Below, piece by piece: positions 3,098 through 23,759 of a stretch of DNA of 64,000 bases. The notes beneath the pieces are model-generated. The model had not been told where the DNA came from. It ran no database searches and saw only the letters and a program-made list of their open reading frames with translations. This DNA comes from Burkholderiales bacterium. GTDB taxonomy: Bacteria; Pseudomonadota; Gammaproteobacteria; Burkholderiales; SG8-39. Location: the NCBI GenBank assembly GCA_035310985.1, contig DATGDH010000037.1, positions 37,382 through 101,381 of the forward strand, written 5' to 3'. The stretch's first letter is position 1, and every line of letters begins with the position of its first letter. The position numbers and the translations under genes are program-made.

Positions 3098-4762
3098 CTA
3101 GGCCACCAGCGCCTTGTAGCGGATGCGGTGCGGCTTATCGGCGTCCTCGCCGGCGCGCTTGCGCCAGTCCTCGATGTAGTCGGCGAAGTTGCCCTCGAAC
3201 CACACCGCCTTGCTGTCGCCCTCGAAGGCGAGGATGTGCGTCGCGACGCGGTCGAGGAACCAGCGGTCGTGCGAGATGACGACCGCGCAGCCGGGAAAGT
3301 CGAGCAGCGCCTGCTCGAGTGCGCGCAGCGTCTCGACGTCTAGGTCGTTGGTCGGCTCGTCGAGCAACAGCACGTTGCCGCCGCTCTTCAGGAGCTTGGC
3401 GAGGTGCACGCGGTTCCGTTCCCCGCCGGAGAGCTCGCCGACGCGCTTCTGCTGGTCGGCGCCGCGGAAGTTGAAGCGCGCCACGTAGCCGCGGCTCGGC
3501 GTCGAGTAGCCGCCGACCTGGATATTGTCGGCGCCGTCGGAGATCTCCTCCCACACGGTCTTGTTCGCATCCAGGCTGTCGCGGCTCTGGTCGACGTAGG
3601 CGAACTTCACCGACTCGCCGAGCTTCAGCGTGCCGGCGTCGTGCTTCTCCTGGCCTACGAGCATGCGGAACAGCGTCGTCTTGCCGGCGCCGTTCGGCCC
3701 GATCACCCCGACGATGCCGCCCGGCGGCAGGCGGAACGACAGGTTTTCGAACAGCAATCTGTCGCCGAAGGATTTCTTCAGCCCTTCCGCTTCGACCACC
3801 AGGCTGCCGAGCGGCGGGCCGGGCGGGATGTAGATCTCGTTCGTTTCGTTCCGCTTCTGGAACTCCTGCGAGGACAGCTCCTCGAACTTGGCGAGCCGAG
3901 CCTTGGACTTCGCCTGTCGCGCTTTGGGATTGGAGCGCACCCACTCCAGTTCCTCCTGCATCGACTTGATGCGCGCCGCTTCCTGCTTGGCCTCGACTTC
4001 GAGGCGCCGCTCCTTCTGCTCGAGCCACGACGAGTAGTTTCCCTCCCAGGGAATGCCGAAGCCGCGGTCTAGCTCGAGGATCCAGCCCGCGACGTTGTCG
4101 AGGAAATAGCGGTCGTGCGTCACTGCGACCACGGTGCCCGGGAAGCGCTCCAGGTACTGCTCCAGCCAGCGCACGGAGAGCGCGTCAAGGTGGTTGGTCG
4201 GCTCGTCCAGCAGCAGCATGTCGGGCTCCGAAAGGAGCAGCCGGCACAGCGCCACGCGGCGCCGCTCGCCGCCCGAGATCTTGCTGACGTCGGCGTCCCA
4301 GGGCGGCAGACGCAGCGCGTCGGCGGCGACCTCGAGACGGCGCTCGACGTCGGCGCCGCCGGCGTTCACCTCCGCCTCGAGCTTCGCCTGCTCCTCGGCG
4401 AGCTTCTCGAAGTCTGCATCGGGCTCGGAGTACGCGGCGTAGACCTCCTGCAGGCGCTTCATCGCCGCGAGCGTCGCGCCGAGCCCCTCCTCGACGTTGC
4501 CGCGCACGTTCTTCGCCGGATCGAGGCGCGGCTCCTGCGGCAGGAAGCCGATGCGCAGGTTCGGCATCGGGATCGCCTCGCCGTCGAAATCCTTGTCCTC
4601 GCCCGCCATGATGCGCAGCAACGTCGACTTGCCCGAGCCGTTCAGGCCGAGCACGCCGATCTTTGCCCCAGGGAAGAAATTCAATGAAATGTTCTTGATG
4701 ATCGTACGCTTCGGGGGCACGGTCTTGCTCACCCGGCGCATGGTGTAGACGTATTGGGCCAT
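3098..4762 (-). CDS. ettA: energy-dependent translational throttle protein EttA (ABC-F ATPase)
   Basis: 554 aa. N-terminus MAQYVYTMRRVSKTVPPKR...GVLGLNGSGKSTLLRIMAG. Two Walker A motifs and two LSGGERRR/LSGGERNR signature motifs. Confidence 0.95.
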   Translation of the reverse strand: MAQYVYTMRRVSKTVPPKRTIIKNISLNFFPGAKIGVLGLNGSGKSTLLRIMAGEDKDFDGEAIPMPNLRIGFLPQEPRLDPAKNVRGNVEEGLGATLAAMKRLQEVYAAYSEPDADFEKLAEEQAKLEAEVNAGGADVERRLEVAADALRLPPWDADVSKISGGERRRVALCRLLLSEPDMLLLDEPTNHLDALSVRWLEQYLERFPGTVVAVTHDRYFLDNVAGWILELDRGFGIPWEGNYSSWLEQKERRLEVEAKQEAARIKSMQEELEWVRSNPKARQAKSKARLAKFEELSSQEFQKRNETNEIYIPPGPPLGSLVVEAEGLKKSFGDRLLFENLSFRLPPGGIVGVIGPNGAGKTTLFRMLVGQEKHDAGTLKLGESVKFAYVDQSRDSLDANKTVWEEISDGADNIQVGGYSTPSRGYVARFNFRGADQQKRVGELSGGERNRVHLAKLLKSGGNVLLLDEPTNDLDVETLRALEQALLDFPGCAVVISHDRWFLDRVATHILAFEGDSKAVWFEGNFADYIEDWRKRAGEDADKPHRIRYKALVA

Positions 4763-5840: not shown

Positions 5841-7505
5841 ATGGCATTCGTGCAGGCCGCGCCTCGGCTCGGCAACCAGTACGACGACGACCGCGTGCTG
5901 CGCGGCTACCTCGAGCGCACGCTCGCGCCGCAGCAGCTGGAAGCGTCGCGCGCGCAGCTCGCGCGCATGGGCGGGCTCGCCGGCGGCGAGCTGTACGCGC
6001 AGCAGCTTGCCGAGCGGGACCTGGAGCCGCAGCTGGTGCAGTGGGACGCCTGGGGCGGGCGCGTCGATCGCATCGAGCTCACGCCCCTGTGGCAGCGCGC
6101 CGAGGAGATCGCGGCGCGCGAGGGGCTGATCGCGCTGCCGCACGAGGCGCCGCTCGGCGCGCTCTCGCGGGTGCTGCAGTTCGCGCTCGTGTACCTGTTC
6201 ACGCCTTCGACCGACGTGTACGCCTGCCCGCTCGCAATGACAGACGGCGCGGCGCGCACCATCGCGGCGTCGGGCAGCCGCGAGCTCGCCGAGCGCGCGC
6301 TGCCGCACCTCGTGAGCCGCGACCCGGCGCGGTTCTGGACCAGCGGCCAGTGGATGACCGAGGCGATCGGAGGCTCGGACGTCGGGCTCGCCGAGGCCGA
6401 GGCGCGCTTCGCCCCGGGCGAGGGCTGGCGACTGTACGGGCGCAAATGGTTCACTTCGGCGATCGCCTCGCAGATGGCGCTCACGCTCGCGCGCCCCGCG
6501 GGCAACGCGCCGGGCGGCAAGGGGCTCGCGCTCTTCTACCTCGAAACGCGCGACGCCGAGGGACGCCCGAACCGCCTCACGGTGGACCGGCTCAAGGACA
6601 AGCTCGGCACGCGCAAGGTGCCGACCGCGGAGCTGACGCTCGAGGGCACGCCGGCGATCCCGGTCGGCGAGCTCGCGAACGGCGTGCGCGCGATCAGCAC
6701 GGTGCTGAACATCACGCGCGTATGGAACGCCGTCTCGGCTGTGTCGTACATGCGCCGCGGGCTGGCGCTCGCGCGCGCCTACGCGCGAGAGCGCGTCGCC
6801 TTCGGCGCCCCACTCGCCAGGAAGCCGCTGCACGTCGACACGCTCGCCGGCCTGCAGGCGGAGTTCGAGGCGGGCTTCCAGCTCGCGTTCTTCGCCGTCG
6901 AGCTGCTCGGACGCACCGAGCAGGGCGCGGCGAGCGAAGAGCAGCAGGCACTCGCCCGCATGCTCACCCCGGTGGCGAAGCTCCTCACCGGGCGCCAGTC
7001 GGTCGCGGTGCTCTCGGAGGTGCTGGAGGCGTTCGGCGGCGCCGGTTACGTGGAAGACACCGGGTTGCCGATGCTGCTACGCGACGCGCAGGTATTCCCG
7101 ATCTGGGAGGGCACCACCAACGTGCTCGCGCTCGATGCGCTGCGCGCGATCGCGCCGACGGGCCTCGCGCCGTGGCTGCGCGAGCTCGGCCTGCTGCTGG
7201 GCACGGTGCGCGACAAGGAGATGGTCGCGCTCTCGGCGCGCCTGCAGGCGGCCGCCGAGGCGGCCGACGGATGGCTCAAAGGCCACGCCGGGCGCGACGA
7301 GGCGGCGCTCGAGGCCGGCGCGCGCCGCTTCGCGCTCACGCTCGGGCGCGTGACCGCCGCGGCGCTGCTCGCGCGCCAGGCGCAATGGTCGCTCGAGCAC
7401 CGCCGGGATCCCGCGCCGCGCGCCGCGGCGCTGCGCTTCGCCGCCGCCGGCGTGAACCTGCTGCAGGATCACGATCCCGAGCTCTCGAGGCTATTGTCCG
7501 CCTGA
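5841..7505 (+). CDS. acyl-CoA dehydrogenase family protein, AidB-like
   Basis: ATG 5841 lies 2 nt after the queD stop and is in frame with track ORF 5733..7505. The upstream extension overlaps queD and is rejected. Motifs [17 protein letters not shown] and [10 protein letters not shown]. Confidence 0.75.
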
Positions 7506-7679
7506 ACGCGGGCGCATCAGGATGCCGATTCCGATCGCAAGCGGAATCAGCGGCCACAGCTTCCAGAGCTGGTGCAGCGTCTGCCGGTCGATCAGCCCGA
7601 AGTTCGCCAGCAGCCCGACGACGCCCACCAGGATCAGCACGATCGCCCCGAAACGCCCGCCCCGCCCGTGTCTGCTCAT
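7491..7679 (-). CDS. small 2-TM membrane protein (62 aa)
   Basis: [29 protein letters not shown]...[14 protein letters not shown]. Its ATG overlaps the panE stop as ATGA (7676-7679). Confidence 0.5.
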
Positions 7680-8611
7680 GATGGATTTCCTTTCGTCTCG
7701 ATCAACTTGACCAGCGCGAAGAGCACGCGATTTGCCGGCACCGGCACGCCGAGCGCGTCGCCGCGGCGCACGACGAAGCCGTTCAGGTGGTCGATCTCGG
7801 TCGGCCGGCCGCGCTGCAGGTCCTGCGCAGTCGACGAGTACTGCGTGGGCATCCACTCGGCGATGCGGTAGACGTTGTCGGGCAGCTCGGGCGCAGTGCG
7901 CACGCCGGTCGCCCGCGCCACCGCGAGCGTCTCGGCGACGACGTCGCGCATCACCTCGCGCACGCCGGTCCCGCCGATCATGCGGCCGTACGGGAGCTGC
8001 GAGATCGCGGAGATCGCGTTGTAGGCGCAGTTCACCACCAGCTTGCCCCACAGCTCGCCTGCGACGTTGTCCGAGATCGTGACCTTGACGCCGGCCTCGC
8101 CGAACCAGCGTTGCACGCGCTCGAGGTCCGCTTGCGGGACCGGCGCCGCCTCGAGCGCGCCGATCACCAGCTCGCCGCGGCCGTGGTGCTTCAGATGCCC
8201 GGGCCCCGCCATCTCGGTCGCCACGTACACCACCGCCGGGATCACCGGCCGCTTGATGACCGCCTCGATGCGCTCGGCGTTGTCGACGCCGTTCTGCAGG
8301 TTGGCGACGATCGCGTCGCGCTCGAGAAACGGCGCGATCTCGGCCGCGGCGCGCTCCGAGTCGGAAGACTTGACGCATACCAGCACCAGCCGCGCGCCAC
8401 GCACCGCGTCGGCCTGCGTGCTCGCGTCCAGGCGGATGCGCGCGTCGAACTCCTTGCCCTCGAAGCGCAGGCCTTCCTCGCGGATCGCCTTGACGTGCGC
8501 CGGCCGGCCGATCAGCGTCACGCGGTGTCCGGCGCGCGCGAGCATCGCGCCGTAGAAGCAGCCCACGGCGCCCGCGCCCAGCACAGCGACGCGCTGCGGT
8601 TCGCTGGTCAT
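7676..8611 (-). CDS. panE: 2-dehydropantoate 2-reductase (PanE/ApbA family)
   Basis: Start at MTSEPQRVAVLGAGAVGCFYG (Rossmann GxGxxG), in frame within track ORF 7676..8806. Motifs VCVKS, ISDNVAGELWGKLVVNCAYN and STAQDLQRGRPTEIDHLNG. Confidence 0.85.
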   Translation of the reverse strand: MTSEPQRVAVLGAGAVGCFYGAMLARAGHRVTLIGRPAHVKAIREEGLRFEGKEFDARIRLDASTQADAVRGARLVLVCVKSSDSERAAAEIAPFLERDAIVANLQNGVDNAERIEAVIKRPVIPAVVYVATEMAGPGHLKHHGRGELVIGALEAAPVPQADLERVQRWFGEAGVKVTISDNVAGELWGKLVVNCAYNAISAISQLPYGRMIGGTGVREVMRDVVAETLAVARATGVRTAPELPDNVYRIAEWMPTQYSSTAQDLQRGRPTEIDHLNGFVVRRGDALGVPVPANRVLFALVKLIETKGNPS

Positions 8612-9039: not shown

Positions 9040-9621
9040 ATGCTCTTCGGAAGACTGGCCGCTGCCGCGGCGATCGCCCTGTCCTGCCTCGCCGTGGCGC
9101 CCACGGCATCGGCCGCCCTAAGCGCGAAGGAAAAGGAGCAGGCGCGCGCCGACGTGCAGAAGATGGCGCGCGAGACGCTCGACCGGCTGTACCGCACGCA
9201 GCCGGGCGCCAAGGCCGCTATCGCGAAGTCGGCGGGTTACGCGGTCTTCAGCAACTTCGGCATGAAGATCTTCTTCGCCGGCGGCGGCAAGGGCACGGGA
9301 CTCGCGATGAACAACCAGACCAAGAAGCCGACCTACATGAAGATGGTCGAAGTCCAGGCGGGACTCGGCATCGGCGCCAAGAAATTCCGGCTGGTCTGGG
9401 TGTTCGACAATGCGAAGGATTTCAACGCCTTCGTCAACTCGGGCTACGAGCTCGGCGGCCAGGCGAGCGCCGCGGCGAAGAAAGGCTCTCAGGGCGGCGC
9501 GTACCAGGGGGCCGTGTCGGTGTCGCCCGGCGTGTGGCTCTACCAGCTGACCGACGAGGGGCTGGCGGCGGAGATCACCGCCAAGGGCACGAAGTACTAC
9601 AAGGACGCCGACCTGAACTAG
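9040..9621 (+). CDS. secreted hypothetical protein (SYLF/DUF500-like by eye)
   Basis: AAAGGAGG RBS upstream. Signal peptide MLFGRLAAAAAIALSCLAVAPTASA. Motifs GYAVFSNFGMKIFFAGGGKGTGLAMN...VQAGLGIGAKK. Confidence 0.6.
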   Translation: MLFGRLAAAAAIALSCLAVAPTASAALSAKEKEQARADVQKMARETLDRLYRTQPGAKAAIAKSAGYAVFSNFGMKIFFAGGGKGTGLAMNNQTKKPTYMKMVEVQAGLGIGAKKFRLVWVFDNAKDFNAFVNSGYELGGQASAAAKKGSQGGAYQGAVSVSPGVWLYQLTDEGLAAEITAKGTKYYKDADLN

Positions 9622-10808
9622 CGCAGCTCGGCGACGAAGCAGGCGCCGCCGCCCTCGCGCGCAAGGCAGCGCGCGTCGCCGCCGTGGCGGCGCGCGATCT
9701 GGCGCACGAGCGCGAGCCCGAGCCCCGCGCCGCTCTCGCCCGCCGCGTGGCGGAAGAACGGCTCGAACACGCGCTCGCGCTCGCCTTCCGGCACGCCGGG
9801 GCCGCGGTCGCACACCGACAGCTCCGCGCCGGCGGCGCGCCTGCGCAGGCGCACGTCGATCGGCGGCGCGCCGTGGCGGCGCGCGTTCTCGAGCAGGTTG
9901 CGGATAAGGCGCCTCAGCAGCCGCGGATCGCCGCGCAGCGCGACCGGCTCGCCTTCGAGCTCGGCGCCCTCGTAGCGCGCGCATTCCTCCGCGGCGAGGG
10001 CGAGCAGGTCGACCTCCTCGTCCGCCTCGCGCCCCTCGACGGCCTCAAGGCGGCTCGCGAGCAGGATCTCGTCGATCAGCTGGTCGAGCTCGCCGATGTC
10101 GCGCTCGAGCTGCGCCTTTCTCTTCGGCTCGGCGCCCTCCTTCATCAGCTCGATCGCCATGCGGATGCGCGTGAGCGGCGTGCGCAGCTCGTGCGAGGCG
10201 TTCGCGAGCAGCGCCTTGTGCGCGTCGACCAGCGCCTCGATGCGGCCGGCGGCGCGGTTGAAGCTCTGGGCGAGGTGCGCCACCTCGTCGTCGCCCTCGA
10301 CGGCGACGCGCGCCGCGAGGTCGCCCGAGCCGAGCGACTCGACCCCCGCCTGCAGCTTCTCGAGCCGCCGCGTCAGGCGCCGCACCACCGGGTAGGCGCC
10401 GACGCCGACGCCCACGGCGACGAGGGCGAGGGTGAGAAACAGCCGCCAGGCCGGGTGCCGCCGGCCGCGCGCAGGGCCCGCCACGAGCCAGCGGCCGTCG
10501 GCGAGCTCGATGCCCGGACCGGCGCGGCGCAAGGGCCGACCGACGAACGCGATCGGCCTGCGCTCGGCGTCGAACAGCGCCACGTCGGCGTGCAGCTCGG
10601 CGGCCAGGCGCTCGAGCGCCGCCTTCTGTTCCGCGCGCGGGGCGCCGGCCGGGGGCAGCGCGTTCTGCGGGAGCCGCTCGAGCGCCTCGTAAACCGGGCG
10701 CGCGAGGCCTGGCTCGACCAGCTGGCGCCACAAGAACCCCGCGGCGAACACGAACACGAGCAGGCTCGCGAGCACCGCGACGTAGATGCGCAGGTACAGC
10801 TTGCGCAT
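9618..10808 (-). CDS. sensor histidine kinase (CpxA-like architecture: 2 TM, periplasmic loop, HAMP, HisKA, HATPase)
   Basis: Start MRKLYLRIYVAVLASLLVF, in frame within track ORF 9618..11303. H-box NASHELRTPLT. The ATG shares 1 nt with the regulator stop (TGATG at 10806-10810). Confidence 0.85.
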   Translation of the reverse strand: MRKLYLRIYVAVLASLLVFVFAAGFLWRQLVEPGLARPVYEALERLPQNALPPAGAPRAEQKAALERLAAELHADVALFDAERRPIAFVGRPLRRAGPGIELADGRWLVAGPARGRRHPAWRLFLTLALVAVGVGVGAYPVVRRLTRRLEKLQAGVESLGSGDLAARVAVEGDDEVAHLAQSFNRAAGRIEALVDAHKALLANASHELRTPLTRIRMAIELMKEGAEPKRKAQLERDIGELDQLIDEILLASRLEAVEGREADEEVDLLALAAEECARYEGAELEGEPVALRGDPRLLRRLIRNLLENARRHGAPPIDVRLRRRAAGAELSVCDRGPGVPEGERERVFEPFFRHAAGESGAGLGLALVRQIARRHGGDARCLAREGGGACFVAELR

Positions 10809-11494
10809 CAGTCCTGCGCCTTGGCGAACACGTAGCCCGCGCCGCGCACCGTGACGATGCGGCGCGGGTTCCTGGGATCGTCCTCGATTGCCTGGCGGAT
10901 GCGTGACACGTGCACGTCGATCGAGCGGTCGAAGGCCTCGAGCGGCTCGCCGCGCAGCGCGTCCATGAGCGCGTCGCGCGACATGACGCGCCCGGCGTTC
11001 TCGGCGAGCGCGACGAGCAGCGCGAACTGGTGCGAGGTAAGGACCTTCTCGGCGCCGTCGACGCGCACCACGCGCGCGCCGCGGTCGATCTCGACGCGCC
11101 CGAAGCGCAGCACGTCCCCGCGCGCGCCGCCGCCGCGCCGCCGCAGGATGGCGCGCAGGCGCGCGAGCAGCTCGCGCGGCTCGAAGGGCTTGGGCAGGTA
11201 GTCGTCGGCGCCGATCTCCAGGCCCACCACGCGGTCCATCGCGTCGCCGCGCGCGGTCAGCATGAGCACCGGCACGTCCGACGAGGCGCGCAGCTTGCGG
11301 CACACCTCGAGCCCGTCGATCCCCGGCAGCGCGAGATCGAGCACCAGCGCGTCGAAGGGCTCGCGCGCGAACCGGGCGAGTCCCTCTTCGCCGCTGCCCG
11401 CGGACGCGACGCGAAAGCCCGCCTGGCCGAGATATTCGGACACCATCTCGGCCAGCCGGGGATCGTCTTCGATCAGCAGGACGTGCGCGGCCAC
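10808..11494 (-). CDS. OmpR-family response regulator (CpxR-like)
   Basis: 228 aa. Motifs VLLIEDDPRL, DLALPGIDG, MLTARGDAMDRVVGLEIGADDYLPKPFEPRELLARLRAILRR. Winged-helix C-terminus ends IVTVRGAGYVF. Confidence 0.9.
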   Translation of the reverse strand: MAAHVLLIEDDPRLAEMVSEYLGQAGFRVASAGSGEEGLARFAREPFDALVLDLALPGIDGLEVCRKLRASSDVPVLMLTARGDAMDRVVGLEIGADDYLPKPFEPRELLARLRAILRRRGGGARGDVLRFGRVEIDRGARVVRVDGAEKVLTSHQFALLVALAENAGRVMSRDALMDALRGEPLEAFDRSIDVHVSRIRQAIEDDPRNPRRIVTVRGAGYVFAKAQD

Positions 11495-11507
11495 GCGCGC
11501 AGTTTAC

Positions 11508-12047
11508 CTATCCGCGCCCGCGCCAGCCGTGCCGGCCGTGTCCGCCGCCGAAGCGGCCGAAGCGCTCGGCGAGCTGCTGCCTTTGCGCGGGAGTGAGCAC
11601 CTCGGCGACGTCGACCAGCGCCTGGGTGAAGCGCCTGGACATCTGCTCGACCAGCCTGCTGCGCTCCGCGCTCAGCTTCTCGATCGCCGCTCGGTCGATT
11701 TTCTCGGCGGTGAACAGCTCGCGCTGCTGCCTGCGCAGGTCGCGCATCTTCTGACGCAGCGGGAACAGATCCTTCGCTGCGGCCTTCACGATCGGGTCGA
11801 TCTTCTGCTTCTGCGCATCGCTCGCGTCCAGCTCGACGTACAGGTGCCCGAGCATGCGGTTGACGCGTGCTTCCGCCTGCACGGGGTCGGCCGGTCGGCT
11901 CATGGTGCCGCGCTCGCGCGGCCCGTCGCCGTCTGCGCCGCGCGCATAGGCATACAGGCCCGTGCCGAGCGCGAGGCCGGCGAGCACGGTGGCGAGCGCC
12001 AGCCGCGCGGGGACGCGACGGCGCTTTTCCGGTTTGGTTTCGTACAT
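11508..12047 (-). CDS. periplasmic Spy/CpxP-family (LTXXQ) protein
   Basis: Start MYETKPEKRRR, followed by a TM/signal segment. Motifs LDASDAQKQKI and LTPAQRQQLAERF. Gly/His/Arg tail. Lies 13 nt upstream of the response regulator on the same strand. Confidence 0.7.
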   Translation of the reverse strand: MYETKPEKRRRVPARLALATVLAGLALGTGLYAYARGADGDGPRERGTMSRPADPVQAEARVNRMLGHLYVELDASDAQKQKIDPIVKAAAKDLFPLRQKMRDLRRQQRELFTAEKIDRAAIEKLSAERSRLVEQMSRRFTQALVDVAEVLTPAQRQQLAERFGRFGGGHGRHGWRGRG

Positions 12048-12114
12048 GATGGCTCCTTGGTTGGGGGTACGGCGCCAGTGTCGCGGCGGCGCGTAATGGC
12101 CTTTTCTCGGCGCG

Positions 12115-12129
12115 GTAAAGTTATGTAAA
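12115..12129. promoter_or_regulatory. perfect CpxR-type direct repeat GTAAA-N5-GTAAA
   Basis: Sequence is GTAAAgttatGTAAA. It lies 68-82 nt upstream of the cpxP-like ATG (12047, minus strand) and 19 nt upstream of the ridA ATG (12148, plus strand). Confidence 0.6.
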
Positions 12130-12147
12130 TCCACCCGAGGAGGCGCC

Positions 12148-12540
12148 ATGAAACGCGAGGAATTCCAGCCCGCAGGGCTGCCGGCCCCGATCAGCCACTA
12201 CTGCGACGCGGTGCGCTGGGGCGACCTGTTGTTCGTGTCCGGCGTCGCACCGCTCGACGAGCGCGGCACGCTCGTCGGCGGCGACGATGCGGCGGCGCAG
12301 ACGCGCCAGATCTTCCGTAACCTCAAGCTCGTCCTCGACGCCGCCGGCGCGGGCTTCGGCGACGTGCTCAAGGTGACGGTCTTCCTCACCGACGTCGCCG
12401 ACCGCACCAGGATCAACCCGGTGCGCCAGGAGTACTTTGGCCGCGCGCGTCCGGCGAGCACGCTGATCGGCGTGCGCGAGCTCGCGATTCCCGGGATGAA
12501 GGTCGAGATCGAGGCCGTGGTCGGCCTACGCGGACGCTAG
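12148..12540 (+). CDS. RidA/YjgF/TdcF family reactive-intermediate deaminase
   Basis: 130 aa. Motifs ISHYCDAVRWGDLLFVSG, KVTVFLTD and PASTLIGV..L....KVEIEAV. Confidence 0.85.
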   Translation: MKREEFQPAGLPAPISHYCDAVRWGDLLFVSGVAPLDERGTLVGGDDAAAQTRQIFRNLKLVLDAAGAGFGDVLKVTVFLTDVADRTRINPVRQEYFGRARPASTLIGVRELAIPGMKVEIEAVVGLRGR

Positions 12541-12546
12541 CGCCGT

Positions 12547-13311
12547 TCACCAGCGCAGCGTCACGCCGAGCAGCAGGCTGTGGTCGAAGACGATGCCGTT
12601 CATGCGGAACTTGACTCCTGCGTCCAGGTCCAGGTCTTCGCGCGGCGAGTAGGTCAGCCCGAGCACGGTGTAGCGCAGCGTGCCGTAGGCCGACGGCAGC
12701 GGGTTGGTGTCGGCGCTGAAATCGGCGACCAGTCTCAGCTTCTCCGAAGGCGAGTACGCCACCGCGCCCGAGATGTGGAATAGCGACTCCCGCCAGCCGA
12801 GCGTGTTGCGGAAGCGCCGGTAGCCGAGGTGCGAATAGAACGCGAACGGTCCGTCCGACCGATAGGTGCCGATGAGCAGCGCACCCCAGGTCACCTCTCC
12901 CGCGCCGAGACCGCGTGCGTCGTCGCCCGTCGGCAGCGTGATCCCCGGCTTGACGCCGAGACTTAGCGCGCCGCGCTCGTAGAAGCGCCACTTGAAGTCG
13001 AGCGAGGTGTCGAGCGGGCCGGTGATCACCTGGCGCCCGGCGTCGTCCTCGCTCACGATCCTGAGCCAGGGCTGGCCGAGCAGCAGGTCCGCGTTCGGCA
13101 GCAGGCCATAGCTGAGCACCGCCGCGGGCTGAGCGCCGTGCACCGTCCTGCCGTCCTCGCTCTGGCGCGCGAGCTCGGCGGTGAGCTCGAGCTGGTACGT
13201 GCCGGCACCGACGGTGCCGGTGTCCTCGGTGATCAGCGGGTGAAAGGCGCGCGCGCTGGCCGCGACGAGCAGCAGCGTGAGACCGGCCAGCGGAGGGAGC
13301 GCCCTGGTCAT
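12547..13311 (-). CDS. outer-membrane beta-barrel protein (MetA-pathway/transporter-like)
   Basis: Signal peptide MTRALPPLAGLTLLLVAASARA followed by FHPLITEDTGT. Alternating amphipathic strands throughout. C-terminus GVTLRW. Confidence 0.7.
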   Translation of the reverse strand: MTRALPPLAGLTLLLVAASARAFHPLITEDTGTVGAGTYQLELTAELARQSEDGRTVHGAQPAAVLSYGLLPNADLLLGQPWLRIVSEDDAGRQVITGPLDTSLDFKWRFYERGALSLGVKPGITLPTGDDARGLGAGEVTWGALLIGTYRSDGPFAFYSHLGYRRFRNTLGWRESLFHISGAVAYSPSEKLRLVADFSADTNPLPSAYGTLRYTVLGLTYSPREDLDLDAGVKFRMNGIVFDHSLLLGVTLRW

Positions 13312-13334
13312 GGCCGTGGCATGATACTTGGGTC

Positions 13335-13751
13335 ATGCGCCGCCGCTTCCTCGCCTCCCTCGCCGCCCTCGGCTTGCTCCCGATTCCCCGCGCGCAGGCC
13401 GCCGCCCGGGCGCAGCGCCTGCTGATCCAGATCAGCGATTACGACCCGCGGGTGTGGGGGCTTGCGCTGAGCAATGCGCGCAACGTGCGCAACGACCTCG
13501 GCCCGGATAAGGTGCAGCTCGAGATCGTCGTCTACGGCCCCGCGATTCACATGCTGGAGGCCGAGTCGGACTGGCGCGACCGCGTCACGCAGGTGATCGA
13601 CGAGAGCATCCGCGTCATCGCCTGCGAGAACACCATGGCGACCGTCGGGCTGAAACGCGACGACATGCTGGGCGGCGTCGACTTCGTCAAGACCGGCCTC
13701 GCGCATATCATGCAGCGCGAGCTCGAAGGCTGGGCCTACGCCCGGCCGTAA
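13335..13751 (+). CDS. secreted DsrE-like (COG1416-type) protein, paralogue 1, twin-arginine-type signal
   Basis: MRRRFLASLAALGLLPIPRAQA signal. Module motifs LLIQISDYDPRVWGLALSNARN, EIVVYGPAIHML, ACENTM and EGWAYARP. Confidence 0.7.
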   Translation: MRRRFLASLAALGLLPIPRAQAAARAQRLLIQISDYDPRVWGLALSNARNVRNDLGPDKVQLEIVVYGPAIHMLEAESDWRDRVTQVIDESIRVIACENTMATVGLKRDDMLGGVDFVKTGLAHIMQRELEGWAYARP

Positions 13752-13763
13752 GGGCGCCGCGCC

Positions 13764-14447
13764 TCAGGCGCGGATGTACACCCAGCCTTCCTGCATGCGC
13801 TTGACGATCTCGTCGAGCGCGGTCGGGGCGACATGCACGCCCGGGAGAAGCTTGACCGCCGTGCCCTTCTCGCGCAGCCGGTCGGCGGTCTGGTTGCAGG
13901 CGATGTAGGTCAGGTTCGGGTACGCGGCGCGCAGGCGCTCGAGCCTTGCGGCATAGGCCGAGGTGTCGGTGCGCAGGATGTCCATGCCGCTGTTGTTGGC
14001 GACGATCTCCACCTTGACCTGGTGCCCGGCGGCGCGCGCGTCGCGCAAGTAGTCCTCGACCTCCTGCAGCGCCGTGTCGACCACTTCGCCGCGCGAGGAC
14101 GCGATATGCACGAGGATGCGGTCGGCGGCGACGCCGCGCAGCTCGGTGAGGATGCGGCCGGGCGCGAGCGCGTCGTGCGCGAGCCAGCCCGCCAGCGTGA
14201 ACACGAGCGCGACCGCCGCCACGCGCGCCCAGCGCCTGCGGTCCGGGCCGGGCGCCGCGCGCCCCGGATGCACGCCCGCGTAGGCGCTGCGGGTCATGTC
14301 CTTCAGGGTGCGCAGCTCGCAGACGCGGCGCCTGAGCGCGTCGTCGCGGCCCATGCGCTCGACGAGCGCGGTCCAGTCGGCGGCGTCGAGCTGCCCGTCG
14401 ACGAACGCGTTCTGCATCTCCTGCGAGAGTTCTTCGTCGTGGCTCAT
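13764..14447 (-). CDS. anti-sigma factor with one TM helix and a C-terminal periplasmic DsrE-like domain (paralogue 2)
   Basis: Start MSHDEELSQEMQNAFVDGQLD (anti-sigma N-terminal motif). TM helix WARVAAVALVFTLAGWLAHDAL. Then ILVHIASS..., EIVANNSGMDIL, ACNQT and EGWVYIRA. ATGA overlap with the sigma-factor stop (14444-14447). Confidence 0.7.
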   Translation of the reverse strand: MSHDEELSQEMQNAFVDGQLDAADWTALVERMGRDDALRRRVCELRTLKDMTRSAYAGVHPGRAAPGPDRRRWARVAAVALVFTLAGWLAHDALAPGRILTELRGVAADRILVHIASSRGEVVDTALQEVEDYLRDARAAGHQVKVEIVANNSGMDILRTDTSAYAARLERLRAAYPNLTYIACNQTADRLREKGTAVKLLPGVHVAPTALDEIVKRMQEGWVYIRA

Positions 14448-14986
14448 CGAATGCTCCTGATCTTGCTGTTCTGCTCCGCCGCGCAGTCGATCAAGCGCGC
14501 CCTGAGCGCTTCGCGCGCGCGGCACAGGCGGCTCATCACGGTGCCGACCGGCACCTCGAGGATCTCTGCGACCTCGGCGTAGGAGAAGCCCTCCAGATCG
14601 ACCAGCGTCACCGCCTGGCGCTGGCCGAGCGGCAGGCGCTCGATCTCGGCGCGCACGCGCGCGGCGATCTGGTTGCTCGCGCTCGCGGCTTCCGGGGATT
14701 CGCCATGCGCCGCCATGTCCTCGTCGAGCGGCTCGAGCGGCCGCGCGCGGCGGAAATGGTCCTTCAGGCAATTGGCGAGGATCGCGCACAGCCAGCTCTT
14801 CAGGCGCTGGGGGTCGTTCAGCTGCCCGGCGCGGTCGAGCGCGCGCAGCATCGTCTCCTGCACCAGGTCGTCGGCCAGCCCGGCGTCGTGGCACCAGGAA
14901 TACGCGAGCCGGTACAGCGGCTCGCGCTGCGCCTCGACCCGGCCGCGAAACTGCGCCGACACCCCAAACAGCCCCGTTATCCTCAT
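14444..14986 (-). CDS. ECF (sigma-70 family) RNA polymerase sigma factor
   Basis: Start MRITGLFG at ATG 14986; the low-GC upstream extension of the track ORF is rejected. Region 2: LYRLAYSWCHDAGLADDLVQETMLRAL. Region 4: LPLGQRQAVTLVDLEGFSYAEVAEILEVPVGTVMSRLCRAR. Confidence 0.85.
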   Translation of the reverse strand: MRITGLFGVSAQFRGRVEAQREPLYRLAYSWCHDAGLADDLVQETMLRALDRAGQLNDPQRLKSWLCAILANCLKDHFRRARPLEPLDEDMAAHGESPEAASASNQIAARVRAEIERLPLGQRQAVTLVDLEGFSYAEVAEILEVPVGTVMSRLCRAREALRARLIDCAAEQNSKIRSIR

Positions 14987-14994
14987 GCGCGACA

Positions 14995-15021
14995 AGACGT
15001 TCCAGGGCCGAAGTTTATTCC
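14995..15021 (-). promoter_or_regulatory. candidate ECF-type promoter for the sigma/anti-sigma operon (GGAAT-N17-CGTCT)
   Basis: On the minus strand: GGAAT (15021-15017), a 17-nt spacer, then CGTCT (14999-14995). The -10 element ends 8 nt before ATG 14986, implying a leaderless or near-leaderless transcript. Confidence 0.5.
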
Positions 15022-15031
15022 GTGGAATAAA
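15014..15031. promoter_or_regulatory. perfect 8-2-8 palindrome TTTATTCC-GT-GGAATAAA in the divergent intergenic region
   Basis: An AT-rich palindrome in a very GC-rich context. Each arm supplies a GGAATAAA -35-like element, one reading in each direction. Confidence 0.6.
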
Positions 15032-15050
15032 ACCGCGGCGGCGGGCGTCG
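15024..15050 (+). promoter_or_regulatory. candidate ECF-type promoter for the dsrE-like 3/4 genes (GGAAT-N17-CGTCG)
   Basis: On the plus strand: GGAAT (15024-15028), a 17-nt spacer, then CGTCG (15046-15050). It lies about 60 nt upstream of ATG 15112, which has a GGAGAGGAGAG RBS. Confidence 0.5.
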
Positions 15051-15111
15051 TATAGCCGTCGCGGGTGCTTTGCACCCCGATCCACCCACTACAGGACGGA
15101 GAGGAGAGCTA

Positions 15112-15543
15112 ATGAAACAAGTACTTGCGGTCCTTGCGGCGGTCGTCGGCCTGGCCGGTTTCGCCGCTTCCCCCGCCGCGCTGGCCGCCGGCAAGACGTC
15201 GATGAGCCACATCATTATCCAGGTGAGCGACAACGACCCCGGCAAATGGCAATTGGCGCTGAACAACGCGGAAAACGTGCAGGAGGCGCTCGGCAAGGAC
15301 AAGGTGAAGGTGGAGATCGTTGCCTACGGCCCCGGCCTGAACATGCTCAAGGCCGACTCGAAGGCGACCGCGGGCGTGAACGCCGCGCTCGATCGCAATG
15401 TCCAGGTATCGGCCTGCGCGGTGACGATGAAGAAGATGAAGGTCACCAAGGACGACCTGATCGGCGGCGTGACGGTGGTGCCCGGCGGGGTGATCGAGAT
15501 CATGAAGCGCCAGTCCGAGGGCTGGTCGTACGTGCGTCCGTAG
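15112..15543 (+). CDS. secreted DsrE-like (COG1416-type) protein, paralogue 3
   Basis: Signal MKQVLAVLAAVVGLAGFAASPAALA. Motifs IIIQVSDNDPGKWQLALNNAEN, EIVAYGPGLNML, ACAVTM and EGWSYVRP. Confidence 0.75.
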   Translation: MKQVLAVLAAVVGLAGFAASPAALAAGKTSMSHIIIQVSDNDPGKWQLALNNAENVQEALGKDKVKVEIVAYGPGLNMLKADSKATAGVNAALDRNVQVSACAVTMKKMKVTKDDLIGGVTVVPGGVIEIMKRQSEGWSYVRP

Positions 15544-15554
15544 GGGGTCGAGAG

Positions 15555-15992
15555 ATGAAGCGAATCATCGCCAGCCTCGCGCTCGCCGGCGCGATTGCTG
15601 CAGGCGTCGCCCCGGTCGCCCAGGCGAACCCCGCGGCCGAGAGTCACGGAAAGTACCAGCTCGTGATCCAGGTCACCGACGACAATCCCAAGGTGTGGAA
15701 CCTCGCGCTCAACAACGCCTTCGCATTTCAGCGCAACGTCGGCAAGGACAAGTCACAGATCGAGATCGTCGCGATCGGGCCGGGCCTGAACATGCTGAAG
15801 ATGGAATCGAAGGTCCAGGACCGCATCGGCCAGGCGCTCGACCAGAGCATCGACGTCGTCGCCTGCGGCGAGACCATGCACTCGATGAAGGTGACGAAGG
15901 ACGACCTGATCGGCGGCGTGCGCGTCGTGCCCGGAGGCCTGATCGAGATCGCCGACAAGCAGCGCGCGGGCTGGGTCTACTACCGGCCCTAG
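15555..15992 (+). CDS. secreted DsrE-like (COG1416-type) protein, paralogue 4
   Basis: ATG 15555 lies 11 nt after the previous stop. Signal MKRIIASLALAGAIAAGVAPVAQA. Motifs LVIQVTDDNPKVWNLALNNAFA, EIVAIGPGLNML, ACGETM and AGWVYYRP. Confidence 0.75.
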   Translation: MKRIIASLALAGAIAAGVAPVAQANPAAESHGKYQLVIQVTDDNPKVWNLALNNAFAFQRNVGKDKSQIEIVAIGPGLNMLKMESKVQDRIGQALDQSIDVVACGETMHSMKVTKDDLIGGVRVVPGGLIEIADKQRAGWVYYRP

Positions 15993-16825
15993 GCCGTTTG
16001 CGCCGTGAGCGCTTCGGCGCTCAGCATGATCACCTCGATTTCCTGGGTGATCTCCTCCTGGCGCGAAGCGTTCAGGCGCCGGGCGAGGTTTGCAGTGATC
16101 TCGTCCAGGCGCCTGAGCGCCCCTTCCATCTGCTCGAGCCGCCTGCGGTTCTCCGCGATCAGCGACACCGAGAAGGCCTCCTGCAGCGACATCAGGAGCG
16201 CCTGCTCGAGCAGCCCGGCGAAGAATTCCGGCGGCGCGAGCGTGAGGCGCGGCGCGTAGGCGCGCGGGCGCAGCGGCCGCTCGGGCAGCGGCAGCGGCGC
16301 GATCGTGCGCGTCAGCGGCCCCGAGCCGTCCGGACTCTGGTACACGGCCTTGACGTGCAGCGGCCCGGGCGGAGCGGCGCGTTGCACGCGCTCCAGCTCC
16401 GCGGCCACGCGCTGCAGCACCGCCGGAAGCTCCTCGGCGACGTTCGCGCCCGCGACAAGGCCGCCGCCGTCCGCTTCCTCGAGCCGGTCGGCGAGCCGCG
16501 CGCCGACCGCCACCAGCCGCTCGCCGCGCGCGCGCACCGCGCGTGCCTCGGCTTCCAGCGCCTCGTTGAACTCGCCGCAGAAGCCTCGCTCGGAGCCGAT
16601 GACGATGCATACCGTCGCCGCGGGCGCGGCCTCGCCGGGAGGCGCGTGAAAGCACAGGAAGTCGGCCGCCGCGCGCTCGATCGTCGCCATCGCGCGGCGC
16701 TGGTGCTCGAGCAGCCCGGCGAGCGCGCGCAGCTCCATCAACGCGATGTTCTTCATCGCCGAGAGGATGGCGCGCACCTCGCGCAGGCCCGCGAGCCTGC
16801 CGGCGAGCTGGTGGCGCCGCGTCAT
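15989..16825 (-). CDS. atpG: N-type F1Fo ATPase gamma subunit
   Basis: Start [31 protein letters not shown], with ATGA overlap on the atpA stop (16822-16825). C-terminus [19 protein letters not shown]. Last gene of the operon. Confidence 0.8.
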
Positions 16826-18303
16826 GCGGGCAGGCCCCCGACCCAGCCTGCCGCCGCCGCGCTCCAGGATTCGCGCGCGTCTTCGAGCGACAGCGCGCCG
16901 GCGCGCGCGCCGGCGAACAGCCGCTCGAGCGCGGTCTCGAGCGCCTTGTCGTCCAGACCCTCGAAGCGCCGGTCGTTGAAGGCAACCAGCCAGGCGAGCT
17001 GGCACTCCGGCGGCAGCGGGCGCAGCGGCTCCTGCTTGAGCACGCGGCGCAGCAGCCGCCCGCGCGCCAGGCGCGCCTGCAGGCCCGCCTCGAGGCGCGA
17101 ACCGAAGCGCGAGAACATCTCCAGCTCGAGAAACTGCAGGTAGTCGAGCTTCATGCTCGCCGCCTCGCGCTTGATCGCGGCGGGCTGCGCCTTGCCGCCG
17201 ATGCGCGACACCGAGCGGCGCACGTCGATCGCCGGCAGCTGCCCGGCGGCGAACATGCGGCGGTCGAAGTACACCTGCCCGTCGGTGATCGAGATCAGGT
17301 TGGTCGGGATGTAGGCGGCAATCTCGCCCTGCTCGGTCTCGACGATCGGCAGCGCGGTCATGCTGCCTCCGCCGTGCGCGGCGTCCAGGCAGGTGGAGCG
17401 CTCGAGCAGGCGCGAGTGCAGGAAGAACACGTCGCCGGGATAGGCCTCGCGCCCCGGCGGGCGCCTGAGCAGCAGCGACAGCTCGCGGTAGATGCGCGCG
17501 TGCGTCGACAGGTCGTCGTACACCACGAGTGTCTGCCGGCCCGCCTCCATCCAGGCCTCGGCGACCGCGCAACCGGCGAACGGCGCCAGGTACTTCAAGC
17601 CCGGCCTGGCGGTCGCCTCCGCCACGACGAGCGCGCTGTATTCGAGCGCACCACCGGCGCGCAGCGTCTCGATGACCGCGGCGACCGTCGAGCGCTTCTG
17701 GCCGATCAGCACGTACACGCAGTTCACCCCGCGCCCCTTCTGCGCCAGCACCGTGTCGAGCGCGAAGCTGGTCTTGCCGGTACCGTTGTCGCCGATCAGC
17801 AGCTGTCGCTGCCCGTGGCCGATCGGAATCATGCTGTCGGCGATGCGGTTGCCGGTGTAAAGCGGCTTGTTGACGAAGTCGCGCGCCAGGATGCGCGGCG
17901 ACGGCCTCTCGAGCGCTCGGCGCTCGGTGGCGCGCGGCCGCACGCCGCCGTCGAGCGGCTGGCCGAGCGGATCGACCACGCGGCCGAGCAGAGCGTCGCC
18001 GACGCCGAGCGCGAGCCTCTGCCCGGTGAGCGCCGCCGGCGCGCCCGCGCGCAGCCCGGGCGCCTCCTCGAGCAGGATCGCGCCGATGCGCTCGGGCGCG
18101 AGGTGGAACACGAGCGCCGTGCTGCCGTCGTCGGTGCGCAGCAACTCTTCCATCCCCGCCGACGGCAGGCCCTCGATCCACGCCACGCCGTCGCCTACGG
18201 AGAGCACGCGACCGCGCTCGCCCATGCGCAGCGCGAGGCGGTAGTCGCGCAGCCGCTCGGCACGGCGCGCGAGGAGCGGCCGCTCGAGCGCCTCAGGCGG
18301 CAC
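16822..18303 (-). CDS. atpA: N-type F1Fo ATPase alpha subunit
   Basis: P-loop [30 protein letters not shown] near the N-terminus. I place the start at GTG 18303, 8 nt downstream of GGGAGG (18317-18312). The upstream part of the track ORF overlaps atpF. Confidence 0.85.
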
Positions 18304-19042
18304 GCGCGGCACCTCCCGCGAACACGCGCAGCTCGTCGCGCAGGTTCGCCTGGAGCAGCCAGGGCCCGACCGCGACACAAAGCCCGGCAACCAGGGCTTC
18401 GTCCTGCGCGTACTCGGCGCGGCACTCGATGCGCAGGCGCTCGGAGAGCGCGCGCACCAGGCGCGCGCGCGCGGCCTCGGACAGCAGGTGCGCACTCGTC
18501 ACGCTCACGCGCGCGCCGGCGGCGCGCGCCGCCGCGGCGAGCGGGTCGATGCGCTCGGGCGGCCAGCCGGCCAGGTCGGCGGCGAAGACCTCCACCAGGC
18601 GCTCGTCGAGCGCCGGGTCGGCGACGCGCCCGAGCAGCTGCGCGGCGAACGAGCTCGCCTGCTCGAGCGCCTGCTGCTCGGTGTCGCGCTTCCAGTCGGC
18701 TTCGCGCTTCGCCTGCAGTGCCGCGAGCCGGTCGCGCTCGCGCTCGACCGTCTGCGCGACGTCCGCCAGCCCCCGCGCGCGCAAGGCCGCGAGCTCGGAG
18801 TCGAGGGCCGAGCGCGCCTTGAGCCGCTCGCGCTCCCAGTCCGCGAGCCTGCCCTCGAACTGCGCCCGCAGGCGCTCGGCCTCCTCGCGTACGGCCCTGG
18901 CGTCGGCCATCGACTTGTCGATCGCGGCGCGGCGCTTGTCGATCGCCGCGAGCACCGGGCGATAGAGGAACCTGTGCAGGATCCACACCAGCACGACGAA
19001 GTTGACCAGCTGCAGAACGAAGGTGGTGGCGTCGATCTGCAT
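18293..19042 (-). CDS. atpF: N-type F1Fo ATPase b subunit, long form (249 aa)
   Basis: N-terminal TM helix [23 protein letters not shown], then a long charged coiled coil. An extra C-terminal ~90 aa is present ([14 protein letters not shown]...). No separate delta gene in the operon. Confidence 0.75.
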
Positions 19043-19046
19043 GGCG

Positions 19047-19313
19047 TCACTTGAGCAGGAACTCGAGCAGCGGGTTGCGGAACAGCACGATCAGCACGAT
19101 CACCAGCACGTAGATCGCCAGCGACTCGATCATCGCCAGGCCGATGAACAGCGTGCGCGTGACGGCACGCTCCGATTCGGGCTGGCGCGCGATCGCGTCC
19201 AGCGCCTGCGTGATCGCGCGCCCCATCGCCACGGCGGGCAGCATCACGCCGATGGCCATCGCCAGCAGCGCGCCGGCAGTGGATACGATGACGAGCAGTC
19301 CGGTGGCGGTCAT
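19047..19313 (-). CDS. atpE: N-type F1Fo ATPase c subunit (88 aa)
   Basis: MTATGLLVIVSTAGALLAMAIGV...ARQPE...LFIGLAMIESLAIYVLVIVLIVLF. A hairpin of two TM helices with the carboxylate E in helix 2. ATGA overlap with the atpB stop. Confidence 0.85.
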   Translation of the reverse strand: MTATGLLVIVSTAGALLAMAIGVMLPAVAMGRAITQALDAIARQPESERAVTRTLFIGLAMIESLAIYVLVIVLIVLFRNPLLEFLLK

Positions 19314-19996
19314 GATTTCGACTCCTTTCTTTCCTTGGTGAGCTGTTGGGACTGGATGCCGCCGGCGATGTACACCAGCGCGAGCATGCCGAAGATGTAG
19401 GCCTGCACCAGCGCCTCGACCACGTGCAGGAGCAGGATGGGCACCGGCACCAGGAAGCCCGCGACGAGCAGCACCAGCAGCGCCGCCATCTCGAGGCTGG
19501 CCATGTTGCCGAACAGCCGCACCGCCAGCGCGACGGTGCGCGACAGCTCGCTCATCACATGGAACGGGAACAGGAGCGGGCTCGGCGAGAGGTAGTGCCG
19601 CAGGTAGTCGCGCCAGCCCTCGGCGCGCACGCCGTACCAGTGCACCGACAGGAACACCAGGATGGCGAGCGCCGCTGTGAGCGACAGGTCGCCGGTCGGC
19701 GAATGCAGCCCCGGCACGATGCCGGCCAGGTTGGCCACCACGAGGAACACCCACAGCGTGCCGACGAAAGGCACGAGCATGCGCGGGCGCTGCGGAAACA
19801 CCGCGGCGATCGAGCTCTCGATCGCCAGCACCACGCCTTCGAGCACCGTCTGCAACGCGCCGGGCCGCTCGCCGAGCGCGCGCGTCGCAGCCAGGCTGAA
19901 CAGCGCGAGCGCGAGCATGATGCCCCAGGTGGTGACCACCGCGGCGCTGACGCCGAACGGGCCGACGTGGAACAGGATCTCCGACGTTTCCATCAC
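19310..19996 (-). CDS. atpB: N-type F1Fo ATPase a subunit
   Basis: 228 aa, polytopic. Conserved Arg region LSRTVALAVRLFGNMAS. Start is GTG 19996 (GTGA overlap) or ATG 19993 (TGATG overlap) relative to the atpQ stop. Confidence 0.85.
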   Translation of the reverse strand: MMETSEILFHVGPFGVSAAVVTTWGIMLALALFSLAATRALGERPGALQTVLEGVVLAIESSIAAVFPQRPRMLVPFVGTLWVFLVVANLAGIVPGLHSPTGDLSLTAALAILVFLSVHWYGVRAEGWRDYLRHYLSPSPLLFPFHVMSELSRTVALAVRLFGNMASLEMAALLVLLVAGFLVPVPILLLHVVEALVQAYIFGMLALVYIAGGIQSQQLTKERKESKS

Positions 19997-20276
19997 TGCC
20001 GCTCGCGCACGAAGAGGTACACGTTGACGGCGCCCAGCGCCACGCCGGCGAGCAGCAGGCTGATCGTCCAGCGTACCGAGTAGCCCGCCAGCTGGTCGTC
20101 GATCCAGCGGCCGAGGTAGCCGCCGCCGAGCACCGGCAGGATGAACAGCAGCGCCAGCGTGCCGAGGTAGGCGGTCTGCGCGAGCAGGCCCGGGCGCTCG
20201 CGCTCTGCGCGGCGCATGCGCTCGGCCTGGCGCTCCACCGTCTCGCGCAGCTTCGGTTCGCGCTCGGCGTTCGCCA

Positions 20277-20277
<1 letters not shown>
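19993..20277 (-). CDS. atpQ: AtpQ/AtpZ-like small membrane protein of N-ATPase operons
   Basis: Motif GGGYLGRWIDDQLAGYSVRWTISLLLAGVALGAVNVYLFVRE fits the ATPase_gene1-type pattern. I prefer ATG 20277, which shares 1 nt with the atpC stop (TGATG), over the track start at 20298. Confidence 0.65.

Positions 20278-23759
<3,482 letters not shown>

Follow-up and report, generated by a model that had tools for sequence, protein, structure and literature searches.

Divergent, probably self-activated ECF promoters with abutting -35 boxes between a sigma factor operon and secreted dsrE-like genes

Results

Genes of the locus

The stretch of DNA analyzed here, referred to in the following as the window, is 64 kb long and has a G+C content of 70%. 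It contains an ECF sigma factor gene and a predicted anti-sigma gene on the minus strand, and a divergent pair of dsrE-like genes, dsrE2 and dsrE3, on the plus strand; a third paralogue, dsrE1, lies on the far side of the anti-sigma gene (Table 1). The Pfam matches to the sigma protein place it in the ECF (group 4) branch of the sigma-70 family. It scored 86.7 against NCBIfam model TIGR02937 (cut-off 42.9), the general ECF superfamily model and the only one passed, while all named NCBIfam equivalogs fell below their cut-offs. Its relatives in the PDB are SigH, SigE and SigW.

The predicted anti-sigma gene overlaps the sigma stop codon by 4 bp (ATGA). The protein had no match in Pfam or NCBIfam, anti-sigma models included. 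Residues 10–96 are 40% identical to proteins encoded directly after ECF sigma genes of Methylobacterium. The C-terminal half (13764–14135, minus strand) aligned with dsrE2 in hhalign with a probability of 98% and an E-value of 7.6e-14, and the conserved cysteines were aligned. Judged by this comparison, the anti-sigma factor has a sensor domain, predicted to be periplasmic, that is paralogous to the neighboring secreted DsrE-like proteins. Cys184 is invariant in 15 homologues and aligns with a dsrE2 cysteine; it would correspond to the sulfur-carrying cysteine of DsrE proteins. A whole-word literature search returned no description of a DsrE-domain anti-sigma factor.

The dsrE2 and dsrE3 proteins have signal-peptide-like N-termini and belong, by Pfam score, to the DsrE/DsrF-like family (PF02635) of the MTH1491 type; dsrE2 also has the cysteine that aligns with Cys184. 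The closest solved relative of dsrE2 is MTH1491 itself (1L1S, E-value 1.5e-18). Presumably, dsrE3 is co-transcribed with dsrE2. The original prediction had called the gene divergent from sigma the third dsrE-like paralogue; it is the second of the three along the window.

Several other genes surround the locus. The start of dsrE1 is 24 bp from a divergent outer-membrane-channel-like gene (12547–13311, minus strand; Pfam Phenol_MetA_deg), and the same gene pair is present in three related loci (L002, L004 and L009). Directly next to the dsrE operon lies an ATP synthase operon (15989–20298, minus strand), whose genes include those for a small membrane protein of the ATPase_gene1 type (PF09527) and for a fused b/delta-like subunit; in content it looks like an N-type ATPase operon. 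On the other side, the region 9618–12149 (minus strand) has a gene for a CpxP/Spy-like protein of the periplasm (Pfam Metal_resist, LTXXQ), then one for a response regulator of the OmpR type, and a downstream ORF that is histidine kinase-like by sequence appearance. A RidA-family gene lies at 12148–12540 (plus strand).

Table 1. Genes and predicted regulatory features of the sigma/dsrE locus (window coordinates).
Feature	Position	Strand	Basis or remarks
dsrE1, third DsrE-like paralogue	13335–13751	+	Pfam DsrE 20.3, below cut-off 22.7
Predicted anti-sigma gene, 227 aa	13764–14447	-	Cytoplasmic N-terminal segment, one hydrophobic segment, C-terminal DsrE-like domain
ECF sigma factor gene, 180 aa	14444–14986	-	Pfam Sigma70_r2 51.6 bits, Sigma70_r4_2 64.8 bits
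P_sig, predicted transcription start (A of sigma ATG)	14986	-	Spacing, C at -1, absence of a Shine-Dalgarno sequence
P_sig, predicted -10, CGTCT, 17 nt after GGAAT	14995–14999	-	Spacer N17 in 38 loci, N16 in 7
P_sig, predicted -35, GGAATAAA on minus strand	15014–15021	-	GGAATAA conserved upstream of sigma; 32.3 bits; -35 to -28 if +1 is 14986
P_dsrE, predicted -35, GGAATAAA	15024–15031	+	Motif faces divergent dsrE-like gene in 30/30 such loci; 21.9 bits
P_dsrE, predicted -10, CGTCG (family consensus CGTCT)	15046–15050	+	Sequence, footprinting, weight matrix
P_dsrE, predicted transcription start	15058–15059	+	By analogy with P_sig spacing
GC-rich hairpin, predicted 5' end of dsrE mRNA	15059–15080	+	Tentative candidate for a 5' stabilizer
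dsrE2 Shine-Dalgarno region, GGAGAGGAGAG	15098–15108	+	GAGGAG invariant in dsrE leader alignment
dsrE2, secreted DsrE-like paralogue, first gene of divergent operon	15112–15543	+	Pfam DsrE 33.9 bits, cut-off 22.7
dsrE3, secreted DsrE-like paralogue	15555–15992	+	Pfam DsrE 30.6 bits, cut-off 22.7; 11 bp downstream of dsrE2

A unique palindrome carries the same bipartite motif on both strands

The intergenic region between sigma and dsrE2 (14987–15111) is 125 bp long and contains a perfect 8-2-8 inverted repeat, consisting of TTTATTCC (15014–15021), GT (15022–15023) and GGAATAAA (15024–15031). Rightwards, on the plus strand, the repeat provides GGAAT at 15024–15028, followed after 17 nt by CGTCG at 15046–15050; leftwards, on the minus strand, GGAAT at 15021–15017 is followed after 17 nt by CGTCT at 14999–14995. 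Reading the sequence thus confirmed the palindrome with GGAAT-N17-CGTC on both strands, the length of the divergent region, and the distance of 8 nt from the leftward -10 element to the sigma ATG at 14986, all as first described. The two -35 boxes had also been said to overlap; the GGAAT pentamers are in fact 2 bp apart and abut without overlapping.

The arrangement stands out in the window. GGAAT-N17-CGTC has exactly two matches in the 64 kb, one on each strand of the palindrome, where 0.39 would be expected, and GGAATAA is absent from the rest of the window on both strands. The palindrome is also the sole perfect inverted repeat in the window with arms of 8 nt, a loop of 0–4 nt and at least six A/T per arm, and AT-rich palindromes with 8-nt arms did not arise in any of 60 first-order Markov simulations. 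With a weight matrix trained on distant orthologous loci only, the leftward site scored 32.3 bits and the rightward site 21.9, the next best site in the window reaching 6.3; the matrix revealed no further regulon members in the window, and dsrE1 had no site. A scan of 13000–16200 for sigma-70-like promoters found none in the intergenic region, and a search of 14800–15300 against Rfam gave no match.

The motif is conserved while the distance between the boxes varies

The comparison drew on about 90 related loci of Beta- and Gammaproteobacteria. Aligned anti-sigma homologues were used to recover 80 genomic loci, of which about 57 carry true orthologues of the sigma/anti-sigma pair; these come from metagenome-assembled genomes of both groups and have sigma identities of 40–92%. 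A second motif faces the divergent gene in every one of the 30 loci where that gene is dsrE-like, with the exact GGAAT-N17-CGTC core in 24 of them. Ten of the 30 loci have 2 bp between the GGAAT pentamers; in the others the gap is 10, 11, 21, 22, 24, 28, 36, 38, 50, 52, 56, 58, 68 or 70 bp, 2 bp being the smallest found among the related loci. Whatever the gap, every box keeps N17 to its own outward CGTC, and the distances between half-sites show no helical phasing. Loci that lack the divergent gene have the sigma-facing half-site only. Since the gap ranges from 2 to 70 bp while N17 stays, the palindrome is best read as two independent, closely packed -35 elements and not as the operator of a dimer, a candidate that we rejected on the basis of this variable spacing.

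When metagenomes were scanned for the full pattern with the 2-bp gap, 32 loci were found. The sigma start lies 35–41 bp from the palindrome center in 30 of the 32, and a dsrE2-like gene is present about 90 bp away on the other side in 29; two of the loci have a sigma only 56% identical to that of the window. The 2-bp gap is the closest packing of the two boxes in which no bases are shared, even when the favored T at -36 is included, and the symmetry of the palindrome arises only because two extended -35 elements are packed at this distance.

The divergent promoter does not always face a typical dsrE gene. In three loci, divergent GGAAT-N17-CGTC promoters face, respectively, soxY (C-terminal GGCGG; L018, around 3358, minus strand), a gene for a DsbC-like thiol-disulfide isomerase (L022, around 3368, minus strand), and a diverged dsrE gene (L026, around 3378, minus strand). 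These targets suggest that the regulon is concerned with sulfur or thiol chemistry in the periplasm.

Some more distant or degenerate arrangements were also noted. One locus (L093, 799–852) has back-to-back GGAATAA boxes with a 2-bp gap next to a different ECF sigma without detectable tblastn similarity; here the sigma leader is 30 nt and the divergent gene is cupredoxin-like by sequence appearance. Four distant Burkholderiales ECF sigma genes (L066, L068, L069 and L073; 31–40% identical) have GGAA(T/C)AAA upstream, and their -10 is of a GTC type, not CGTC, which resembles the published ECF207 consensus GAATAA/GGTCT. In Thiogranum (L047 and L048), two sigma/anti-sigma/dsrE modules lie about 3.5 kb apart (around 3400–4711 and 6780–8480), with degenerate upstream boxes: L047 has AGAATAAA with TATC, and in L048 a search turned up no site that was convincing.

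The sigma-facing promoter and the predicted start of the sigma mRNA

In most orthologues, GGAATAA-N15-CGTC[T/A] is found upstream of the sigma gene. Among 55 loci (the window and 54 orthologues), 45 match the 11-base core (GGAATAA and CGTC) at 10 or more bases in this position, with the spacers listed in Table 1. The same motif emerged without a prior pattern: when the regions upstream of sigma in 48 orthologues, close ones left out, were screened for enriched k-mers, GGAATAA ranked first among the 7-mers, occurring in 30 of the 48 against 1.09 expected (p = 2.5e-37), and its reverse complement was likewise enriched. In 423 kb of orthologous loci, 71 of 82 exact motif matches fall within 260 bp upstream of sigma. 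This conserved bipartite motif upstream of the sigma operon, with a GGAAC-like -35, a CGT-like -10 and a spacer of 16–17 nt, fits an autoregulated ECF promoter.

If transcription starts at 14986, CGTC occupies -13 to -10 and GGAAT -35 to -31, which is canonical promoter geometry. The stretch between CGTC and the ATG is 9 nt in the window (TTGTCGCGC), with no Shine-Dalgarno sequence, no purine-rich element and no room for a leader. We dismissed two other candidate starts for sigma. The TTG at 14995 falls within the -10 region and lacks conservation, and in place of the GTG at 14962 the close relatives L001, L006 and L007 have GTA. Among the 75 loci with an exact motif, an in-frame ATG or GTG follows 8–10 nt past CGTC in 54, and at exactly 9 nt in 38. 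Sigma identity within these 54 loci goes down to 47%; the start codon is preceded by C in 48 of them and by a pyrimidine in 51, and a Shine-Dalgarno sequence is absent. The sigma mRNA is therefore probably leaderless, with a predicted start at 14986; the proposal of a leaderless or near-leaderless mRNA had been made from the window, and the constant spacing across the 54 loci supports it. Leaderless mRNAs are uncommon in Proteobacteria. The property appears to be lineage-dependent, because many gammaproteobacterial orthologues have sigma leaders of more than 30 nt, several of them with a Shine-Dalgarno-like sequence.

The predicted dsrE-facing promoter and its leader

The rightward site scores about 10 bits below the leftward one and has CGTCG in place of the consensus CGTCT. 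With the start predicted for P_dsrE, the dsrE leader would be 53–54 nt long. The 9th nucleotide after CGTC, on which this start would fall at about 15058, is an invariant G in 24 related dsrE leaders. The hairpin predicted at the 5' end (GTCGCGGGC...GCCCCCG in relatives) is conserved in position in the 24 leaders and folds in 11 of 12, with unremarkable z-scores of -2.2 to +1.0; its consensus structure has nine pairs, only two of which show compensatory changes. It could be a 5' stabilizer or simply a conserved DNA element.

Probable assignment of the promoters to the adjacent sigma factor

Taken together, these observations point to two divergent ECF promoters whose -35 boxes make up the palindrome and which would both be served by the adjacent sigma factor, a reading to which we assign a probability of roughly 85% on comparative sequence evidence. 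In line with the idea that one sigma factor could drive both its own operon and the secreted paralogues, the motif faces both sigma and dsrE2-dsrE3; dsrE1 has no ECF-type promoter, so that the sigma factor does not obviously control all three paralogues.

The half-sites might instead resemble ECF elements by accident, with the palindrome serving as operator for an unrelated dimeric helix-turn-helix regulator. Perfect symmetry over 18 bp is indeed the shape typical of such operators, and the 2-bp gap is kept in about 40 loci, including the two with the 56% identical sigma. An operator of this kind is nevertheless very unlikely, given half-sites that move 2–70 bp apart out of helical phase yet stay at a fixed N17 from the outward CGTC, a sigma-facing half-site that is retained alone where the divergent gene is missing, and the lack of any conserved regulator gene beside the locus. 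Another possibility is that only P_sig functions, the dsrE-facing half being a by-product of symmetry and dsrE2-dsrE3 using another promoter. The lower score of the rightward site and its CGTCG would fit, but a mirror image without function would not keep a -10 of its own, and the dsrE-facing motif has its own CGTC at N17 in 30/30 loci at every gap size, 24 of them with the exact core; together with the failure to find a sigma-70-like promoter in the intergenic region, this makes the by-product explanation extremely improbable.

More serious, if still quite unlikely, is the case in which the promoters are real ECF promoters served mainly by a different, cross-talking sigma factor of an ECF26- or ECF207-like kind encoded elsewhere. 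Cross-talk and the use of GGAAT/CGTC are documented for ECF26 factors (PMC3511301, PMC6527743), whose consensus resembles that of ECF207 (PMC13492112), and the different ECF sigma of L093 is accompanied by the same back-to-back boxes. Against this, the motif co-occurs with the present sigma/anti-sigma pair in more than 70 loci from many orders, which is the standard signature of autoregulation, and no second ECF gene is consistently linked to it. A paralogous sigma could still contribute, because GGAAT/CGTC is also used by cross-talking ECF26 factors (PMC3511301).

Discussion

In kind, the pair of promoters assigned here to the adjacent sigma factor is a textbook autoregulated ECF promoter pair, a familiar self-activating design. 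What is distinctive is the maximal packing of the -35 boxes into a palindrome, the conserved and probably leaderless sigma mRNA, and an anti-sigma sensor paralogous to the products of the regulon.

Divergent units that share an intergenic region, each with a promoter for the same ECF sigma, occur at the EcfG/NepR-PhyR loci of Alphaproteobacteria (ECF15), where the motif is GGAAC-N16/17-CGTT and regulation is by partner switching. To our knowledge, the ECF15 boxes have not been reported to abut as a palindrome. Symmetric DNA is also said to give divergent transcription from one compact site in the bidirectional sigma-70 promoters described by Warman et al. in 2021, in which the symmetric element is reportedly a shared -10 region with starts about 18 bp apart; in the present case it is two distinct -35 boxes that create the symmetry, and 72–73 bp lie between the predicted starts.

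RNA polymerase has a footprint from roughly -40/-55 to +20. With the predicted starts of P_sig and P_dsrE at this distance, each polymerase would therefore need DNA contacted by the other upstream of its -35. The best precedent for interference is the bidirectional region of Pseudomonas syringae with the HrpL-dependent hrpJ promoter and the divergent hrpL promoter, where ECF holoenzyme bound at one promoter covers elements of the other that lie immediately upstream of the bound -35 (PMC5263251), and by analogy with this occlusion, interference between P_sig and P_dsrE is plausible. The two cases differ in that the second promoter of the P. syringae pair depends on sigma-54 and negative autoregulation results, whereas here the same ECF sigma is predicted to act in both directions and the interference is conjectural. 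The circuit does not need mutual exclusivity, because in other lineages the boxes are 10–70 bp apart.

The closest functional comparison is with the sulfite-responsive ECF26 sigma factors RpoE4 and RpoE1 of S. meliloti and SigE of Starkeya novella, whose -35 GGAAT and -10 CGTC elements were mapped by 5' RACE and reporter assays, the RpoE1 consensus being closely related to the RpoE4-type GGAAT/CGTC (PMC6527743, PMC3511301). A published consensus table gives GGAATA/CGTTTT for ECF26 and GAATAA/GGTCT for ECF207 (PMC13492112). The GGAAT(A)/CGT(C) pattern that marks ECF26 promoters is present in the window (compare PMC6527743 and PMC13492112). The ECF-type promoter logic with equal spacing in both directions, on which the original prediction was built, is thus upheld both by footprinting across about 90 loci and by agreement with mapped ECF26 promoters (PMC6527743).

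Besides the core promoter consensus, the locus resembles the ECF26 systems in that the sigma gene is, here by prediction, co-transcribed with a membrane protein that is a putative anti-sigma factor. It would also be like them in the autoregulation known for RpoE1 and RpoE4, in a small local regulon, and in targets connected with periplasmic sulfur chemistry (PMC6527743, PMC3511301). The components differ. ECF26 anti-sigma factors have COG5662-type domains, whereas the sensor domain here is DsrE-like; ECF26 targets are the sulfite dehydrogenases SorT and SorAB, and here they would be secreted DsrE-like proteins; and in S. meliloti the rpoE4 operon is directly followed by the sorT operon, while the target operon here is divergent. 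We consider that the circuit probably works like those of the ECF26 type because of the shared promoter specificity. The ECF sigma genes of Methylobacterium and Methylorubrum among the recovered loci, for which no ECF group was established, are only about 35% identical to the sigma gene of the window, and a Methylorubrum locus (L071) tried as an ECF26/sulfite-oxidase locus had no Pfam match in the downstream ORFs chosen. In its main text, the paper on ECF reclassification refers neither to DsrE nor to a GGAATAA/CGTC motif (PMC7826278).

In the mechanism that we propose, the leftward promoter, TGGAATAAA-N14-CGTCT, would drive the sigma/anti-sigma operon and so provide positive autoregulation, with transcription most likely starting at the A of the sigma ATG (14986) to give a leaderless mRNA. 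The rightward mirror element would drive the dsrE2-dsrE3 operon from about 15058, with a leader that carries a strong Shine-Dalgarno sequence. The anti-sigma factor would free the sigma factor upon a signal sensed by its DsrE-like domain, presumed to be periplasmic, and both units would rise together. The trigger is probably a reactive sulfur species; a signal of this kind in the periplasm is plausible in view of the DsrE-like, SoxY and DsbC-like targets, the conserved cysteine and the host names, among them lineages whose names suggest sulfur oxidizers (Thiohalobacter, Thiogranum, Sedimenticola and Chromatiales).

A more far-reaching and rather doubtful proposal is that this is an undescribed kind of ECF module in which the sensor is paralogous to the DsrE-like proteins that the sigma factor induces, so that these could feed back on the sensor, and in which the abutting boxes may admit only one holoenzyme at a time. 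If so, feedback could occur through mixed oligomers with the sensor or by competition for a sulfur ligand, and each firing would choose between sigma/anti-sigma, on a leaderless mRNA, and the output protein.

From the analysis come a promoter model of high confidence, TGGAATAA-N15-CGTCT, and a minimal regulon of a sigma/anti-sigma family that is otherwise uncharacterized. The natural variants with gaps of 2–70 bp are a ready-made series for testing interference between divergent promoters, and the compact 125-bp bidirectional element could be used as a part in synthetic biology. For Proteobacteria, conservation of a leaderless sigma mRNA would be out of the ordinary. The family occurs widely among metagenome-derived Beta- and Gammaproteobacteria, many of them, by name, sulfur-oxidizing lineages, and its promoter specificity ties it to the only characterized sulfur-responsive ECF factors.
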